Below the pieces are notes generated by a model. It had not been told where the DNA came from. It worked only from the letters and a program-made list of their open reading frames with translations, and did no database searches. This document shows positions 2,165 to 48,517 of a stretch of DNA of 64,000 nucleotides, in pieces (positions within the stretch are counted from its first letter, which is position 1; the number at the start of each line of letters is the position of its first letter). Position numbers and translations under genes: made by a program. This DNA comes from a virus: the IMG/VR virus record IMGVR_UViG_3300008262_000149, positions 6,309 through 70,308 of that record; one strand, 5' to 3'.

Positions 2165-2605
2165 ATGGCATACAAAGGCTTTTTCAAACCATTGAACCCT
2201 TCAAAGTATAGAGGCGATCCCACGAACATTGTTTACCGTTCGAGATGGGAACTCGTTTACATGTCTCGATTAGATAAAGATCCAAACATAGTCGAATGGG
2301 CAAGTGAGGAACACGTAATTCCTTATCGCTCTCCTATCGACAATCGAATACACAGATACTTTGTCGACTTTTATATTAAAAAGAAAATGCCAAACGGCAA
2401 GACGAAGTGTGCACTGATCGAAATCAAGCCAAAGCATCAGACTGTCCCACCGAAGGTAATAAATAAACCAAACAAGCGTTATATCAACGAAGTGATGACG
2501 TGGGGCGTAAACGAAGCCAAATGGAAAGCAGCCACAGAATTCTGTAAAGACCGTGGCTGGGATTTCGAGATACTAACAGAAGATCATTTAGGGCTGAAAT
2601 TCTAG
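2165..2605 (+). CDS. gp4: head completion protein, T4 gp4-like
   Basis: 146 aa; KYRGDPTNIVYRSRWE...WASEEHVIPYRSPID...KWKAATEFCKDRGW pattern typical of gp4-family head completion proteins in T4-like marine phages. Confidence 0.5.
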   Translation: MAYKGFFKPLNPSKYRGDPTNIVYRSRWELVYMSRLDKDPNIVEWASEEHVIPYRSPIDNRIHRYFVDFYIKKKMPNGKTKCALIEIKPKHQTVPPKVINKPNKRYINEVMTWGVNEAKWKAATEFCKDRGWDFEILTEDHLGLKF

Positions 2606-3204
2606 TGGCAACTATATTTGATACAATCATTACTCAAGGCGTTCGTTCCGGACAGATTCCGGCGCGTACACAGGGAGCACGCGATTGGTTTCGTGAAACG
2701 GCCGGTAAGATGAGAACTGTCAACGAACGTACAATGATGAAGGGCGATCAAAGCCGATTGACAAATCGCCCGATCGTTGGCTCGATGTACATGTTCAATT
2801 ATGATCCAAAGTGGAAAGAGGAACTACCGTACTATGACAGGTTTCCTCTGGTCTTTCCATTTCGTAAAGTTCCTGGTGGATTCTATGGAATCAACCTTCA
2901 CTATCTTCCACCACAGCTCAGAGCAAAGTTAATGGATGCTCTGTATGATTATGCCAACAACACTCGTTATGACGAGTCAACCAAGATCAAATTAAACTAT
3001 CAGCTTCTCACGAGCATTGCAAAGATGCGATTCTTTGCTCCTTGTGTAAAGCACTATCTAGATGAGCATGTACGTTCACGTTTCATGTATGTGTATCCTT
3101 CTGAGTGGGACATTGCTCTCTTCTTACCAACAGAACGTTTTGCCAAGAAGTCAAAGACTCAGGTATGGAACGATTCAAAGAGAATGCTAGGGATTAGAAA
3201 GTAA
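2605..3204 (+). CDS. gp2-like DNA end-protector protein (putative)
   Basis: GTG start overlapping the previous stop (TAGTG); motif FNYDPKWKEELPYYDRFPLVFP...GGFYGINLHYLPP is reminiscent of the T4 gp2 C-terminal region; adjacent to the gp4 homolog as in T4 (genes 2-4). Confidence 0.3.
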   Translation: MATIFDTIITQGVRSGQIPARTQGARDWFRETAGKMRTVNERTMMKGDQSRLTNRPIVGSMYMFNYDPKWKEELPYYDRFPLVFPFRKVPGGFYGINLHYLPPQLRAKLMDALYDYANNTRYDESTKIKLNYQLLTSIAKMRFFAPCVKHYLDEHVRSRFMYVYPSEWDIALFLPTERFAKKSKTQVWNDSKRMLGIRK

Positions 3205-5078: not shown

Positions 5079-6904
5079 TGGCAGGATTATTAGACGCCGT
5101 ACAAGGTGCTCTTACAGGCGGATCTAAAGCAGTAACTGGCCTGGCGTCGGGTGTTTCTGCTATGCTCTCTTCAAAAGATAAGATAAGCCAAGAAAACTCG
5201 AATGTAATTTATGCTAGTTTCGGATTGGCCGGTACCGCCGCCAAACAGCGGGTTTCCGGGTCTGGAACACTACCAGCGGCTCAGGCTAAAAGCACGTACA
5301 AAGCAAAAACGAATGATACTGAAAAGCTTCTGACCGATGTTGTGAAGTATTTAGTATCAATCAACGGTACTCTAAAGAAGCAAATTGACTTTGACAGAAG
5401 AGTATATGAAGAAAATGCTCTTGCTGCCAGAGAAGCAAAAGTTGAACAAAACAGTACGTTCGAAGAACTTGGAAAGCGATACGGTGCAGCAAACGATAAC
5501 CAAAAACCCGGTGGCGGCATCGTAGCCGGTATTCTAAGTGCGCTTGGCAGTCTTGGAAAATTAGGACTAGATGCATTACTCAAGGGGTTGGTCACAGCCT
5601 TTGAAGCGTTTTCTTCAGCCTGGAAATGGCTACGAGGAATTTCTTTCTTAAAGAATATAAAGAGTTTATTAGGACTTGCACGAGCACTTCCGATCGGACC
5701 AATTGCCGCTGCGCTGGCCGCGGCTGGTGCTATTGTGTGGGGTGTTGACAAGTTCATGAAAAATACTGCGATGGAACCGTTGCAGGCAAGAAAAGAATTG
5801 GAACAGATGTATGGCATGAAACCGGTTCTTGATGAATCTGGCAGATGGACTACAGGCTATACTCTTCCCGATGGCAAAACATATAAACCAAACGCGCTTC
5901 CTTCAAAATACCAAGATATTTTAAATGCGTATGGTCCTGGCGATAAAAGAAACGCCGCTGCTGTTGAAGCAACAAAAAGAATACAAGCAGATCCTGGGGC
6001 CTATGAACCATCTAAGATGGCTGAAGAGTTAAAGGGAGGACAACAAGTTGCTGCACCTACTCCATCAGGAACTCAATCAGCCTCTACAGCTGGCCAGTCG
6101 CCATACGATGTCGTATTGGGTTATGGCAAATTTGGAAAACCAGAAGACTACTTCAATGGTAGAAAGCTATCACAACTTACTGTTGCCGAGGCATTATGGT
6201 TCGGAAGAAACGTTTTAATTCCTAATTCTGGAAGTATGAATTCTAGTGCCATGGGCGCTTATCAAATTGTGTCAAAAACACTACAAGGTCTGGTTGATCA
6301 AGGCGTAGTTAAATTAACTGATACTTTTAATGCGGCAACACAAGATAAAGCTGCTAAGGCGATTTATGATCAAGCCAATAAAGCAGGTACTCTAAATAAG
6401 CAATGGGCTTACTATATTCCGTCATATGGAGGTACAGGACAAAGATCCGATCCTCGTTCTTTTGAAGAAGCAAGAATGGATATCCTGAAAAAGGAAGGAA
6501 CTCTTAAAGGAACTAATAGTGTTCCAATGAGTCCAGCTGCTTCATCTGATAGTCCATTACAACAAGCTGCTGATACTGCTGCAGATGCTGCCGATAAAAT
6601 GTTAACAAGCGTCGCCGAGTTTATTGGAACTCTTGGCGGGAAAATCTTAGGCCCAGGGAAAGTAAGAAATCTTACTACAACCGGACCAGATTTTGCAAAA
6701 CTCATTTCTGAAGAGTCTAGTAAAATTCAAAATCAAATTGCGATGGGTGAGAAAAAGACTAACACCGCAGCTGCCAATATACCGCCGGCTGCTCGTGCTT
6801 TAAAGTCTATTTCTCCAAACGGATCTATTTCTGTTGTTGATCCAAACTATCCTGGTACTGGCGGGATTGAAAAATATCTCGGGCACTATAGACTGGCATC
6901 ATAA
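5078..6904 (+). CDS. tail tape-measure / baseplate hub-like protein
   Basis: 608 aa; Gly/Ala-rich with a hydrophobic AAALAAAGAIVWG segment; a central region has a weak lytic-transglycosylase-like SSAMGAYQIV motif; its C-terminal module is duplicated in 7671..8447. Confidence 0.4.
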   Translation: MAGLLDAVQGALTGGSKAVTGLASGVSAMLSSKDKISQENSNVIYASFGLAGTAAKQRVSGSGTLPAAQAKSTYKAKTNDTEKLLTDVVKYLVSINGTLKKQIDFDRRVYEENALAAREAKVEQNSTFEELGKRYGAANDNQKPGGGIVAGILSALGSLGKLGLDALLKGLVTAFEAFSSAWKWLRGISFLKNIKSLLGLARALPIGPIAAALAAAGAIVWGVDKFMKNTAMEPLQARKELEQMYGMKPVLDESGRWTTGYTLPDGKTYKPNALPSKYQDILNAYGPGDKRNAAAVEATKRIQADPGAYEPSKMAEELKGGQQVAAPTPSGTQSASTAGQSPYDVVLGYGKFGKPEDYFNGRKLSQLTVAEALWFGRNVLIPNSGSMNSSAMGAYQIVSKTLQGLVDQGVVKLTDTFNAATQDKAAKAIYDQANKAGTLNKQWAYYIPSYGGTGQRSDPRSFEEARMDILKKEGTLKGTNSVPMSPAASSDSPLQQAADTAADAADKMLTSVAEFIGTLGGKILGPGKVRNLTTTGPDFAKLISEESSKIQNQIAMGEKKTNTAAANIPPAARALKSISPNGSISVVDPNYPGTGGIEKYLGHYRLAS

Positions 6905-11311: not shown

Positions 11312-11890
11312 TTATCCTCGATAAAAAATGTGAGCACCAATTTTAGCAGTGCGATCAAAAACTCTACCCCATGACGGACTTACATAGTCGGCATGATAGA
11401 ACTTTGCACCTCTTGTTACGTCTCCGTAATTTCCTAGGTACACATGTTCAGCGATTTCTTTGGCCTTGCGATACGCGGCCCAATCGCCAATTCGCTTTCC
11501 TCCCTCACACTTCCATGAAAACTGGCATACGCCTCTGGCCTTTTGATTAATGACCGCACATGGTGTTTTTGGGAATCGCTTGTCTTTTACGCGGTTCAAC
11601 ACGACGTTGTTCACCGCAATTCTACCTTTATAGGGTTCATGGCCTGCTTCAAAATATGTATTCTCGGCCATGCATTGGATTTGTTGTTTATCGTAAGCAC
11701 TGAGGTAAACAGGCTTCTTTACGATCTTTTCCTTTTCTATTACTTGAACTTCGGGAACCTTAATCACCTTGACCTCTGGTTCTTTCTGAGGAGTTGCAAG
11801 AGCTACACCAGTAACTGCAATAACACCTAGAAAAAAACCTTCGCCCCAACGTAGATAAGGAAAGTCCTTTCTGTTTTCGAATAGTTTCAT
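11312..11890 (-). CDS. SleB-like cell wall hydrolase with N-terminal membrane anchor (candidate endolysin)
   Basis: 192 aa; Hydrolase_2/SleB-like motifs (CMAENTYFEA...AVNNVVLNRV...CQFSWKCEG); hydrophobic N-terminal helix. Confidence 0.65.
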   Translation of the reverse strand: MKLFENRKDFPYLRWGEGFFLGVIAVTGVALATPQKEPEVKVIKVPEVQVIEKEKIVKKPVYLSAYDKQQIQCMAENTYFEAGHEPYKGRIAVNNVVLNRVKDKRFPKTPCAVINQKARGVCQFSWKCEGGKRIGDWAAYRKAKEIAEHVYLGNYGDVTRGAKFYHADYVSPSWGRVFDRTAKIGAHIFYRG

Positions 11891-12104
11891 TGTATCCTCT
11901 AATCTTAAATGATCCTGGCAACCAGAGACTGCTTCGAAGGCATCTCAGCCTAACAGTTTGTCCGTCGCTATGAGAAGATACAAAATGAAATAACGAAGGT
12001 ATCTTCCATCCATTTCCCTCTTACTGGAAATGCAAAATCATTATGGTTTCGTCGGTAGTATCTTAAAGATACTGCTTTCTAGCCCTAAGACTTGAAGCTT
12101 TTGT

Positions 12105-12452
12105 AAGAGTCAATGGAGGTGTCAACCTCCGTCGCGATATAATATTTATACCATTAAGTTGCCGGATTCTGTTTCGAGGCTCCGGCGGGCCCAATGCTAG
12201 CCTCAAGCGGCTAGAGCAAAGGCAACGTCATTATCGTTTGCGTTTACGTTTAGTGGCAACTTTGCCAAGCAATCAGTCTCGAACCGCCTTATTCTGCGTG
12301 CATCGATTCCCAGTAACACCCCCATCAACTACACTGCCCGTAACGTCCGCGGTCTATATCTTGTCAATTCAAGACCACAGTGTAGATGGTGGAGGTGGGG
12401 GGATTCGAACCCCCGTCTACTCCGCTTTTATTGTTGATTGTCAACAACTGAT
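12105..12452 (-). ncRNA. ssrA: circularly permuted (two-piece) tmRNA gene, ssrA
   Basis: Minus strand reads acceptor piece ...GGGGGTTCGAATCCCCC-CACCTCC-A-CCA (T-arm 12414-12398, 3' acceptor strand 12397-12391, discriminator A, encoded CCA 12389-12387). A 63-nt intervening hairpin follows. The coding piece starts GGGGGTG (12323-12317, G3:U70 pair) UUACUGGGAAUCGAUG, similar to the E. coli tmRNA 5' end. Tag frame GCA AAC GAT AAT GAC GTT GCC TTT GCT CTA GCC GCT TGA (12241-12203) encodes ANDNDVAFALAA, with the stop codon in the loop of helix CUAGCC-GCUUGA-GGCUAG. The 3' boundary is approximate. Confidence 0.7.
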
Positions 12453-12458
12453 AATCTA

Positions 12459-12487
12459 TATATACATCAATTTGTTTTTAATGTACA
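12459..12487 (-). promoter_or_regulatory. early promoter (TGTACA-N17-TATATA) upstream of the tmRNA precursor
   Basis: Member of the repeated AACTGTGTACA-N17-TAnnnT family; predicted start about 12450. Confidence 0.45.
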
Positions 12488-12490
12488 CAG

Positions 12491-12928
12491 TTATTTGCAC
12501 CAAGATTGCTTTGCATCACCAAAATATTCACGAGCAAAGCCATTTGCAATCAGTTGAGCACGAAGACTCTTGCCATCAAGCATCATATCGCCAAGAATAC
12601 GGCCGCCATATTTGTCCCAATCGTACACGACATATTGGACTTTCTTTGCCTTTGCTACTAGATCCTTTGTAAAGGCGCTAGCCGCCTGTCCCTTTGCGTC
12701 TTCTGCTGGACATTGGGCACGATGGCCTTTTTCTGGAGTATCCACGCCATAGATGCGAACTGAAATCACAGGCTTAATTGGAGCAGGAACCCATGGCGCT
12801 TCAACCTGCACAGTGTCACCATCAGCAATCTTAATTACCTTGGCGTCATATGTAACACCAACTGGAGTCTTTTGTGCAGTAACTGGAACAGCTAGCGCAA
12901 AAAACGCCAGGGCAATAAACTTCTTCAT
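12491..12928 (-). CDS. secreted thermonuclease (staphylococcal nuclease-like)
   Basis: Signal peptide MKKFIALAFFALAVPVTA; motifs IADGDTVQV and VRIYGVDTPEKG; AAGGA ribosome-binding site before MKKF. Confidence 0.65.
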   Translation of the reverse strand: MKKFIALAFFALAVPVTAQKTPVGVTYDAKVIKIADGDTVQVEAPWVPAPIKPVISVRIYGVDTPEKGHRAQCPAEDAKGQAASAFTKDLVAKAKKVQYVVYDWDKYGGRILGDMMLDGKSLRAQLIANGFAREYFGDAKQSWCK

Positions 12929-12936
12929 GGATATCC

Positions 12937-13263
12937 TTAATTGCAGCGAGTCTGCCAGTAGATATAACGCTCGCCACGATACCATTCAGTTACCTGTTCA
13001 CGAACGCAATAACGGCGATCGTAGCGGTTATCAGGCGGATAGTAGCGATTGTCGTATTCTCGATCATGACGATCTTCAGAAGCAATGGCACCTACAACGA
13101 TTCCACCGATAATTGCTCCACAGAGCCATCCACAACCACCACGGTCTCTACGACGTTCATGCTGACTATAGTCTCTGTCTCTACTGCGATCGCGATGATC
13201 AGCAAGAGCTGGAGTGGTGATTAGCATGCTAGCTACGAGGGCTGATGCAATAAGCTTCTTCAT
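12937..13263 (-). CDS. secreted glycine-zipper protein (17 kDa surface antigen-like), RDR-rich
   Basis: Signal peptide MKKLIASALVASMLITTPALA; motif GGCGWLCGAIIGGIVVGAIA. Confidence 0.4.
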   Translation of the reverse strand: MKKLIASALVASMLITTPALADHRDRSRDRDYSQHERRRDRGGCGWLCGAIIGGIVVGAIASEDRHDREYDNRYYPPDNRYDRRYCVREQVTEWYRGERYIYWQTRCN

Positions 13264-13264
13264 A

Positions 13265-13447
13265 TTAGAACCTTTCATCAATTTCGGCAAACATCACGCG
13301 TTTTCGTGGATCACCTGGCGTGATACACCGGGTGAGTCTAAGAGCTTCATTATAATTCTTCGTATGAAACTTCACCGGAAAGAGAATCTCTTCATCCTCG
13401 GTTTCCAGAAGCATGCCTACGAAGTAAGTACCATTTTCTTCTTGCAT
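13265..13447 (-). CDS. hypothetical protein
   Basis: 60-aa ORF. Confidence 0.25.
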   Translation of the reverse strand: MQEENGTYFVGMLLETEDEEILFPVKFHTKNYNEALRLTRCITPGDPRKRVMFAEIDERF

Positions 13448-18242: not shown

Positions 18243-18250
18243 TATTTATA
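18243..18250 (-). promoter_or_regulatory. T4-type late promoter TATAAATA
   Basis: Plus-strand tatttata, so TATAAATA on the minus strand, upstream of the homing endonuclease gene. Confidence 0.4.
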
Positions 18251-34297: not shown

Positions 34298-34326
34298 TTT
34301 ATATCAAAAAGAGGAAAAAATGTACA
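34298..34326 (-). promoter_or_regulatory. early promoter TGTACA-N17-TATAAA
   Basis: repeated promoter family; drives the Lar-like gene. Confidence 0.45.
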
Positions 34327-48432: not shown

Positions 48433-48517
48433 AAAAAACTCCTTTGGTCTATTTATGAGACAAAAGAAAACCGGCCCGAGTATTGCTACTGGGCCGGCCG
48501 TGTTATTCTTATTTATA

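Follow-up and report, generated by a model that had tools for sequence, protein, structure and literature searches.

The bacterial prototype of the two-piece transfer-messenger RNA (tmRNA) is reportedly that of Caulobacter crescentus, credited to work by Keiler, Shapiro and Williams in 2000. A gene resembling it is described here from the minus strand of a 64,000 nt stretch of viral DNA (positions 6,309 to 70,308 of IMG/VR record IMGVR_UViG_3300008262_000149; this whole stretch is called the window). It is very probably a functional ssrA gene which, as judged from sequence features and their conservation, encodes a circularly permuted, two-piece tmRNA.

An earlier note on this DNA had described the permuted gene order as that known from alphaproteobacteria. 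The order is correct, but permuted tmRNA is also found in a betaproteobacterial lineage and in cyanobacteria (PMC11915505), so it is not restricted to that group. Among phages, a two-piece ssrA has been described in the T4-like OM43 phage Melnitz (Buchholz et al. 2022, PMC9004378). The same paper reports two-piece tmRNAs in the pelagimyophages HTVC008M and Mosig, and permuted tmRNAs in the T4-like cyanophages S-CAM1, S-CAM3, S-SSM7, S-CRM01 and S-CBWM1, as well as in phiCbK-like phages (PMC9004378). A survey of 18,146 phage genomes, with ARAGORN as the detector, gave 133 unique phage tmRNAs, 53 of them two-piece (PMC9004378). The Melnitz tmRNA was reported downstream of an early-type promoter, and in both Melnitz and Mosig a glutamine (glnA) riboswitch lies in the 3′ region of ssrA, a feature called common but not defining (PMC9004378). 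The novelty in T4-like phages implied by the earlier note is therefore not upheld, as such genes have been published for pelagimyophages, Melnitz and cyanomyophages, and the SsrA gene annotated in the GenBank record of Mosig is syntenic with the gene in the window.

Anatomy of the gene and covariance-model matches

Read along the minus strand, a 66 nt acceptor piece is followed by an intervening segment of exactly 63 nt and then by a coding piece of about 168 nt (coordinates in Table 1). The acceptor piece carries a T-arm, the 3′ strand of an acceptor stem, a discriminator base and an encoded CCA. The 5′ strand of the same stem lies downstream of the CCA, at the beginning of the coding piece (base G1), and the tag frame comes after it, which is the permuted order. 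The two strands form an acceptor stem of 7 bp (GGGGGUG with CACCUCC) that contains a G3:U70 pair. The resume codon begins 82 nt past G1 and opens the frame GCA AAC GAT AAT GAC GTT GCC TTT GCT CTA GCC GCT TGA, and the encoded tag, ANDNDVAFALAA*, resumes on alanine, has a hydrophobic C-terminus of the (L/V)AA type and is closed by a stop codon in frame. For the acceptor piece, the 5′ end is placed tentatively, from the onset of conservation and the position of the promoter. The 3′ limit of the coding piece is approximate and is set where conservation among relatives ends, just past the pseudoknot PK2. All of the sequence elements listed in the earlier note (T-arm, acceptor strand, CCA, 63 nt gap, GGGGGUG, tag and stop-codon helix) were recovered on the minus strand where it had placed them. 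It had also remarked that no 5′ acceptor strand lies at the distance usual for a tRNA, and no complementary strand was found upstream of the T-arm.

Searches with Rfam covariance models gave matches far beyond chance. The permuted model (RF04321, tmRNA_permuted) aligned over model positions 1–213 of 213 with a score of 95.2 bits, against a gathering threshold of 47 (E = 3.4e-17). The alpha-subtype model (RF01849, alpha_tmRNA) also aligned over its full length and was passed marginally (60.2 bits, threshold 50, E = 4e-14), with its alpha-specific outer P2 segment deleted in the alignment; relatives of the gene score 56–88 bits in the same model. The betaproteobacterial model RF01850 scored 55.7 bits, below its threshold of 84. 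The alpha model, which the earlier note had suggested as a check, thus scores above threshold, as does the permuted model.

The canonical T-arm, the 7 bp acceptor stem and the encoded CCA would also fit an intron-containing or permuted tRNA, or a tRNA fragment beside an unrelated small open reading frame (ORF), and BLAST matches in other phages are limited to this part of the gene. However, an anticodon and a D arm are lacking, neither ARAGORN nor Rfam calls a tRNA, and the 5′ acceptor strand downstream of the CCA is continuous with the tag frame and a pseudoknot and covaries with the tRNA-like half. The explanation as a tRNA is refuted by these covariance-model and covariation results and retains a negligible probability. 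The intron-containing tRNA that the earlier note had named as a possible refutation was accordingly not found; the two pieces covary as those of a tmRNA.

Conservation and covariation among relatives

A 25-mer of the acceptor piece was found in nine IMG/VR contigs, all nine of which score as permuted tmRNAs, and a 19-mer of the coding piece is common to at least 94 viral contigs. The family considered below consists of 95 loci, i.e., 94 contigs (L001–L094) and the window. The mature segments hardly vary, in contrast to the hypervariable intervening segment.

A structural alignment was built from 33 distinct mature-piece sequences. RNAalifold, run unguided, recovered P1, the T-arm, P2a, P2b, a hairpin in the PK1 region and stem 2 of PK2. 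In the formal pair count, to which the second pseudoknot stem and helix P5 were added, 94.2% of the cells are paired, compared with 35–50% when the partners are slid by 1–3 columns. Double-sided changes occur in 16 pairs, and none of 500 shuffles matched the observed covariation score. The T-stem contributes 14–19 double-compensatory cells, while in the acceptor stem one pair covaries and G3:U70 is present in all 33 sequences. In two relatives (L032 and L074), positions 4 and 5 of the acceptor stem are altered on both strands and G3:U70 is kept. Six of the seven pairs of P2a show double changes; the 7 bp of P2b (AUCAGUU with GACUGAU) are 100% paired and do not vary. Pairing between the P2 strands of the two pieces, the absence of which would have counted against the earlier note, is thus detectable and, in P2a, covaries. 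PK2 shows double changes in all five pairs of stem 2 and in two of the four pairs of stem 1, and the PK1-region hairpin is paired in 98.5% of cells. The stop codon in the loop of a 6 bp helix (P5, CUAGCC/GGCUAG), to which the earlier note had drawn attention, is present in the window. As a family-wide feature P5 was rejected, with just 67% of cells paired; it is specific to the ANDNDV(A/T)FALAA subclade, where it is kept with a C:G to U:A compensatory change.

The in-frame tag is intact in all 95 loci. Its 13 variants begin with ANDN (or AANDN) and end with (A/R)LAA, their differences in length are multiples of three, and none is frameshifted or truncated. No match to the tag strings was obtained in the literature searched, nor in the supplementary files that accompany the tmRNA database paper. 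Conservation of the tag bears on the possibility that the RNA is a decoy or inhibitor, which would bind host SmpB, alanyl-tRNA synthetase or stalled ribosomes and so block or divert trans-translation, for example against a tmRNA-dependent anti-phage response. The tmRNA of phage DS6A is reduced to a tRNA-like domain, and a similar molecule inhibits tmRNA in E. coli (PMC4131195, PMC11915505). A decoy would also be in keeping with the failure of a weak test to find smpB in the window, and with a coding-piece 19-mer that was found in no bacterial tmRNA gene of the genomes searched. Against this, the tag of every locus resumes on an alanine codon, starts with ANDN, has an LAA-type end and is closed by a stop codon, and the context of the resume codon and PK2 are conserved and covarying, none of which a pure decoy needs. 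A pure decoy is unlikely, as tag frame and mRNA-like structures are kept everywhere.

A megablast search with 2 kb around the gene gave no match among deposited phages, and a sensitive blastn search with the tmRNA against the same phages gave matches to the T-arm and acceptor core only, under both tRNA and tmRNA annotations. The coding-piece 19-mer had no tmRNA match in a set of 185,579 bacterial and archaeal species, each represented by one genome; its sole bacterial match, considered as a trace of a donor or host, was dismissed as a chance occurrence in GC-rich coding DNA. Among L001–L094, nine T-arm variants and the 13 tags occur in 23 combinations. The tag ANDNNAYEGLALAA is paired with four different T-arms, and the pseudoknot variants are reassorted too, which points to recombination inside the tmRNA gene.

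A host ssrA carried as a passenger or in decay, acquired by recombination and without function in the phage, would have a precedent in the proposal of the Melnitz authors that temperate-phage gene exchange or imprecise prophage excision is a possible origin of ssrA (PMC9004378). The alpha-subtype score that barely exceeds its threshold, and the deleted P2 segment, could be taken as signs of decay. A relic would not be expected to show, across dozens of diverged phages, fixed synteny and a conserved promoter of its own, nor compensatory changes in every testable helix and tags free of frameshifts and truncations. Nor does it fit a 19-mer that lacks a tmRNA match in any of the species searched, or mature regions that are near-invariant beside a spacer that varies freely. 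Given the covariation, the fixed synteny, the promoter of its own and the lack of a bacterial twin among the species searched, a relic is very unlikely, and the gene is treated below as a functional ssrA.

Table 1. Features of the tmRNA gene and its surroundings (positions are those of the window)
Feature	Positions	Strand	Sequence, detail or evidence
Acceptor piece, 66 nt (5′ end provisional)	12387..12452	minus	sequence, Rfam alignments, covariation in T-arm and P2a
P2b 5′ strand, acceptor piece	12452-12446	minus	AUCAGUU
Hairpin, acceptor piece	12445-12433	minus	
P2a 5′ strand, acceptor piece	12425-12418	minus	
T-arm	12414-12410, 12409-12403, 12402-12398	minus	GGGGG, loop UUCGAAU, CCCCC; read from sequence
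Acceptor 3′ strand	12397-12391	minus	CACCUCC; sequence
Discriminator	12390	minus	A; sequence
Encoded CCA	12389-12387	minus	sequence
Intervening segment, 63 nt	12386-12324	minus	between CCA and G1
Closing helix of intervening segment	12385-12377 with 12337-12329	minus	CUACACUG / CAGUGUAG
UGAU leader	12327-12324	minus	conserved; abuts G1 on its 5′ side
Coding piece, about 168 nt (3′ end approximate)	12156..12323	minus	Rfam, alignments, covariation
Acceptor 5′ strand, coding piece	12323-12317	minus	GGGGGUG, beginning with G1 (12323)
P2a 3′ strand, coding piece	12302-12296	minus	
P2b 3′ strand, coding piece	12278-12272	minus	GACUGAU
PK1-region hairpin	12267-12254	minus	coding piece, upstream of resume codon
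Tag frame	12203..12241	minus	resume codon GCA at 12241, stop UGA 12205-12203; peptide ANDNDVAFALAA
Helix P5, 6 bp	12197..12214	minus	CUAGCC 12214-12209 / GGCUAG 12202-12197, UGA in loop
PK2, H-type pseudoknot	12161..12192	minus	conserved loop GAAACAGAA; both stems covary
PK2 stem 1	12192-12189 with 12180-12177	minus	GGGC with GCCU
PK2 stem 2	12186-12181 with 12166-12161	minus	GCCGGA with UCCGGC
Sigma-70-like promoter	12459..12487	minus	-35 TGTACA 12487-12482, 17 nt spacer, -10 TATATA 12464-12459
T4-type late-promoter consensus, directly after the tmRNA	12143..12150	minus	TATAAATA; enriched motif
5′ leader RNA of hydrolase gene, about 245 nt	11891..12136	minus	non-coding, outside the tmRNA
SNase-type nuclease gene, upstream neighbour	12491..12985	minus	Pfam PF00565, E = 5e-13
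Hydrolase_2 (cell-wall hydrolase) gene	11890-11312	minus	Pfam PF07486
gp33 late-transcription coactivator gene	11311-11060	minus	Pfam PF16805
gp59 helicase loader gene	10893-10303	minus	Pfam PF08993 + PF08994

Promoter, intervening segment and hydrolase leader

The sigma-70-like promoter upstream of the gene has a predicted start at about 12454–12452, corresponding to the first base of the acceptor piece, so that no 5′ processing would be needed at that end. It was compared across 41 distinct upstream regions of relatives. The -10 hexamer (TATAAA in 22, TATATA in 14) has a fixed end, exactly 6 nt ahead of ATCAGUUG (at ATCAG), and the -35 hexamer is TGTACA in 16, TTGACT in 11 and TTGACA in nine. 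The spacing is 17 nt in 34 of the regions, with unrelated spacer sequences; the -35 scores average 4.63 there and 2.46 when the position is shifted. Within the window, the TGTACA/17/TATA-type arrangement occurs twice where 0.06 would be expected, the second being TGTACA-N17-TATAAA at 34298–34326 (minus strand); the window contains no canonical TTGACW-N16-18-TATAWW site. A sigma-70-type promoter is well supported. The T4 late-promoter consensus, TATAAATA, can also be read in the -10 region in 22 of the 41 relatives. That motif has 12 occurrences in the window (e.g., 2148–2155, 18243–18250 and 48510–48517), where 2.0 would be expected, and 10 of the 12 are on the minus strand. The overlap of the two promoter types, together with the weakness of the hexamers in the window itself (see below), means that the temporal class is not established. 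The earlier note had the gene driven by an early promoter: a sigma-70-type site is borne out by its fixed position in the 41 regions, but 'early' went beyond the evidence, given the overlap with the late consensus.

The intervening segment is 5–157 nt long in relatives, and 471–505 nt in three loci where it bears a gene. Among the segments of 28 nt or more, 46 are distinct, and every one has an uninterrupted closing helix of 8–12 bp that begins 0–2 nt past the CCA. The helix occurs in 38 different sequences, whereas a control with mismatched partners averages 5.6 bp. Most of these helices are 10–12 bp, about the length of the acceptor plus T-stem stack of a tRNA. The bases before G1 are also conserved: positions -4 (U) and -3 (G) are the same in all 46, position -1 is U in 43, and a U directly follows the CCA in 46 of 47. 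The segment is probably removed during maturation. A maturation into two RNAs is suggested, indirectly, by the covariation in the closing helix and by conservation of the UGAU leader. In three relatives (L001, L013 and L015) there are T-arm-like hairpins (e.g., GAGGUUCGAAUCCUC) just 5′ of the 3′ strand of the closing helix, so that the spacer resembles an acceptor-plus-T minihelix, and RNase P might also cut at the 5′ foot of the spacer, beside the CCA.

In L032, L035 and L074, the intervening segment holds an ORF of 141–162 aa on the tmRNA strand, with an H-N-H motif that is evident by eye although the match to the Pfam HNH model falls just below threshold (E = 1e-3). The stop codons of these ORFs lie 13–24 nt beyond G1 (the L035 ORF is at 2247–2672, minus strand). 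This suggests a homing endonuclease for which an excised spacer would be a safe insertion site. Co-conversion of the flanking tRNA-like block by such an enzyme is a plausible cause of the shuffling of modules. Another relative, L014, has a segment of 133 nt (identical in five loci) with a small, putative Cys-rich ORF, MVICSCRDIRDSQYTNLEDLRARIIEDDFCCGTCLDEFLVDGG..., that enters the 5′ end of the coding piece and has no Pfam match.

Directly after the tmRNA, the late-type motif TATAAATA probably drives a leader of about 245 nt and the hydrolase gene behind it. The leader runs up to the Shine-Dalgarno sequence and start codon (ATG) of the Hydrolase_2 gene and is nearly invariant across loci with differing tmRNA modules. 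Its folding z is -3.9. A consensus from an alignment of 30 sequences has 51 pairs with 99.7% of cells paired, against 45–57% when slid, a structure derived from the same alignment that was used to test the pairing. Ten pairs show double changes, and the fold comprises several covarying hairpins and a 10 bp long-range helix. An invariant UCUU (12108–12105) pairs with the Shine-Dalgarno AGGA (11898–11895). No Rfam model matched the leader at E up to 10. The core of the leader has matches in 114 viral contigs and none among deposited phages; a tmRNA-type tag frame stands upstream of it in 91 of 97 loci, and the late-promoter motif [TG]ATAAATA precedes it in 100 of 107. A small ORF inside the leader was considered and rejected, as a 1 nt indel in the core would shift its frame in most loci. 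The leader is a candidate for a new cis-regulatory RNA of a lysis-type hydrolase gene, and is the most interesting lead of the region.

A more speculative proposal joins these observations. A virus-only, modular tmRNA lineage (with tRNA-like, tag and pseudoknot blocks as its modules), a spacer serving as a homing-endonuclease landing pad that drives their exchange, and a leader of about 245 nt that would hide the ribosome-binding site of the hydrolase could form one module, tying translation or ribosome-rescue status to the timing of lysis, with the linkage in 91 of 97 loci as part of the case. As a whole this is improbable.

Judged by its gene content, the source genome is that of an uncultivated T4-like myovirus. 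The T4-like character assumed in the earlier note is confirmed by the presence of gp59, gp33 and a gp41-type helicase, the last about 60% identical to those of T4-like cyanophages and of Stenotrophomonas phage DLP_6. Also encoded are a class I ribonucleotide reductase, a DNA polymerase and a gp48-like baseplate protein, and a virion protein is 47% identical to cyanomyophage proteins. Syntenic loci were located via gp59; a tblastn search with gp33 found nothing, a failure that probably reflects the shortness of the protein or filtering. The SNase-type nuclease gene is syntenic in many relatives, and the C-terminus of the nuclease (...GDAKQSWC*) is found upstream of the tmRNA in many loci. Upstream of the nuclease gene is an ORF of 117 aa (12937–13290, minus strand). 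Its N-terminus is signal-like, its middle is rich in Arg and Asp, and its C-terminus is conserved (...VREQVTEWYRGERYIYWQT.CN); the ORF lacks a Pfam match and has a homologue at the same place in L032. ARAGORN and Rfam found no tRNA gene in the 64 kb window; in one relative (L033), 11 tRNA genes lie within 6 kb of its tmRNA.

Proposed function and comparison with known tmRNAs

The following scheme is inferred from sequence as regards where transcription starts, which enzymes process the RNA, its charging, its need for host SmpB and what the phage gains. Host RNA polymerase would initiate at the sigma-70-like promoter, giving a primary transcript that opens with the acceptor piece. In the precursor, the acceptor 3′ strand would pair with the GGGGGUG of the coding piece, and the stem-loop of the 63 nt spacer would stack on the acceptor stem. 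RNase P would cleave 5′ of G1, past the UGAU leader, and the 3′ side would be cut and trimmed to the encoded CCA. The expected products are two RNAs, the acceptor piece of 66 nt and the coding piece of about 168 nt, joined by P1 (7 bp), P2a (3+3 bp) and P2b (7 bp). Host alanyl-tRNA synthetase would charge this RNA via G3:U70, and host SmpB and EF-Tu would bring it to ribosomes stalled on broken mRNAs. Translation would resume at the GCA codon and add ANDNDVAFALAA, the tag marking the protein for host proteases and the ribosome being freed. The most likely benefit is that the ribosome pool would be kept available as host DNA and mRNA are degraded and the supply of host tmRNA declines.

Several results weigh against a functional two-piece tmRNA. 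A tblastn search of the window for smpB with E. coli SmpB, a weak test, gave noise only; with no smpB found there, function would depend on the fit with host SmpB. The promoter hexamers of the window are weak, matching at four of six positions each (8/12 in total), and a generic promoter scan found none upstream of the tmRNA. P2b and the extra long-range pairs are invariant, and hence beyond the reach of covariation, and of PK1 only the hairpin was identified, not its second stem. Thermodynamic cofolding of the two pieces recovered P1 and the T-arm but not P2a, and the gain in dimerisation energy was no better than with a shuffled acceptor piece; as cofolding is ambiguous, the evidence for the helices was taken from covariation. 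ARAGORN reported no genes in the window, and a local run at default settings or with -ps likewise gave nothing. At -ps80 it placed the resume site and tag correctly but built a one-piece tmRNA, with a hairpin at 12130–12115 as its 3′ domain. That model was rejected as false, since the true CCA-ending half is upstream and covaries with the 5′ strand. ARAGORN calls most members of the family permuted tmRNAs but misses the subclade of the window (L001–L009), and its silence is a blind spot of the detector, not evidence against the gene. It follows that phage tmRNA surveys undercount, and that pipelines should add RF04321. The central proposal of the earlier note, a phage-encoded, circularly permuted two-piece tmRNA with an intact tag, is fully supported by the covariance models, the covariation and the T4-type neighbours.

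Compared with Caulobacter-type bacterial tmRNAs, the gene has the same succession of acceptor piece, intervening segment and coding piece, an encoded CCA, G3:U70, a P2 joining the two RNAs, and a tag starting with ANDN and ending with LAA, and it passes both Rfam thresholds. It differs from the bacterial alpha type in being virus-encoded with no smpB found nearby, in its shorter acceptor piece, in the deletion of part of the P2 region, and in having a canonical T-loop (UUCGAAU) in place of the alpha consensus GGCGGUACC. The phiCbK-like Caulobacter phages and the cyanophages S-CAM1, S-CAM3, S-SSM7 and S-CRM01 also have phage-borne permuted ssrA genes, mostly in aquatic phages (PMC9004378 Table S1), but belong to other phage families or carry host-matched subtypes, and BLAST similarity is limited to the T-arm. 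The tmRNAs of Bxz1-cluster mycobacteriophages are likewise phage-encoded, but are one-piece and non-permuted, and the mini-tmRNA of DS6A consists of the tRNA-like domain alone, with no tag (PMC4131195), whereas the gene in the window keeps its tag. At the syntenic site of Caulobacter phage Cr30 there are only tRNAs and no tmRNA.

The closest likeness is to Mosig, HTVC008M and Melnitz (MZ577097, Methylophilales), which share a permuted, alpha-type, two-piece tmRNA in a T4-like myovirus. The order in Pelagibacter phage Mosig (MT647606) is PD-(D/E)XK nuclease, hypothetical protein, SsrA, gp33, thyX and gp59, and that in the window is SNase, tmRNA, Hydrolase_2, gp33 and gp59; in both, the tmRNA lies between a nuclease gene and the gp33-gp59 block. 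The Rfam scores are also alike (93.6 and 67.6 bits for Mosig, 95.2 and 60.2 for the window), as are the UUGUUGACAAU element in the acceptor piece, the closing helix of about 10 bp and the 3′ pseudoknot with its GAAACAGAA loop. The tags differ, that of Mosig being GEDNFALAA, as does the region between the tmRNA and gp33, where the window has a hydrolase gene and another structured leader. This leader sits where Melnitz and Mosig carry the glutamine riboswitch; neither glnA nor Downstream-peptide gave a match at E up to 1 in 11800–12600, or at E up to 10 in 11870–12160.

The family offers a natural experiment of at least 94 loci, with at least 13 tags, nine T-arm variants and 38 versions of the spacer helix, and its variation shows what the processing of a two-piece precursor needs and how freely a tag can change. 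The gene in the window is an already-known type of RNA at an already-known locus, and confirms the published picture that two-piece rescue RNAs are common in T4-like phages of aquatic bacteria, at a fixed locus beside late-transcription genes. What is new by comparison is a sublineage without a relative among deposited phages and missed by ARAGORN, the shuffling of its modules between phages, and the HNH-like genes in the spacers of three relatives.

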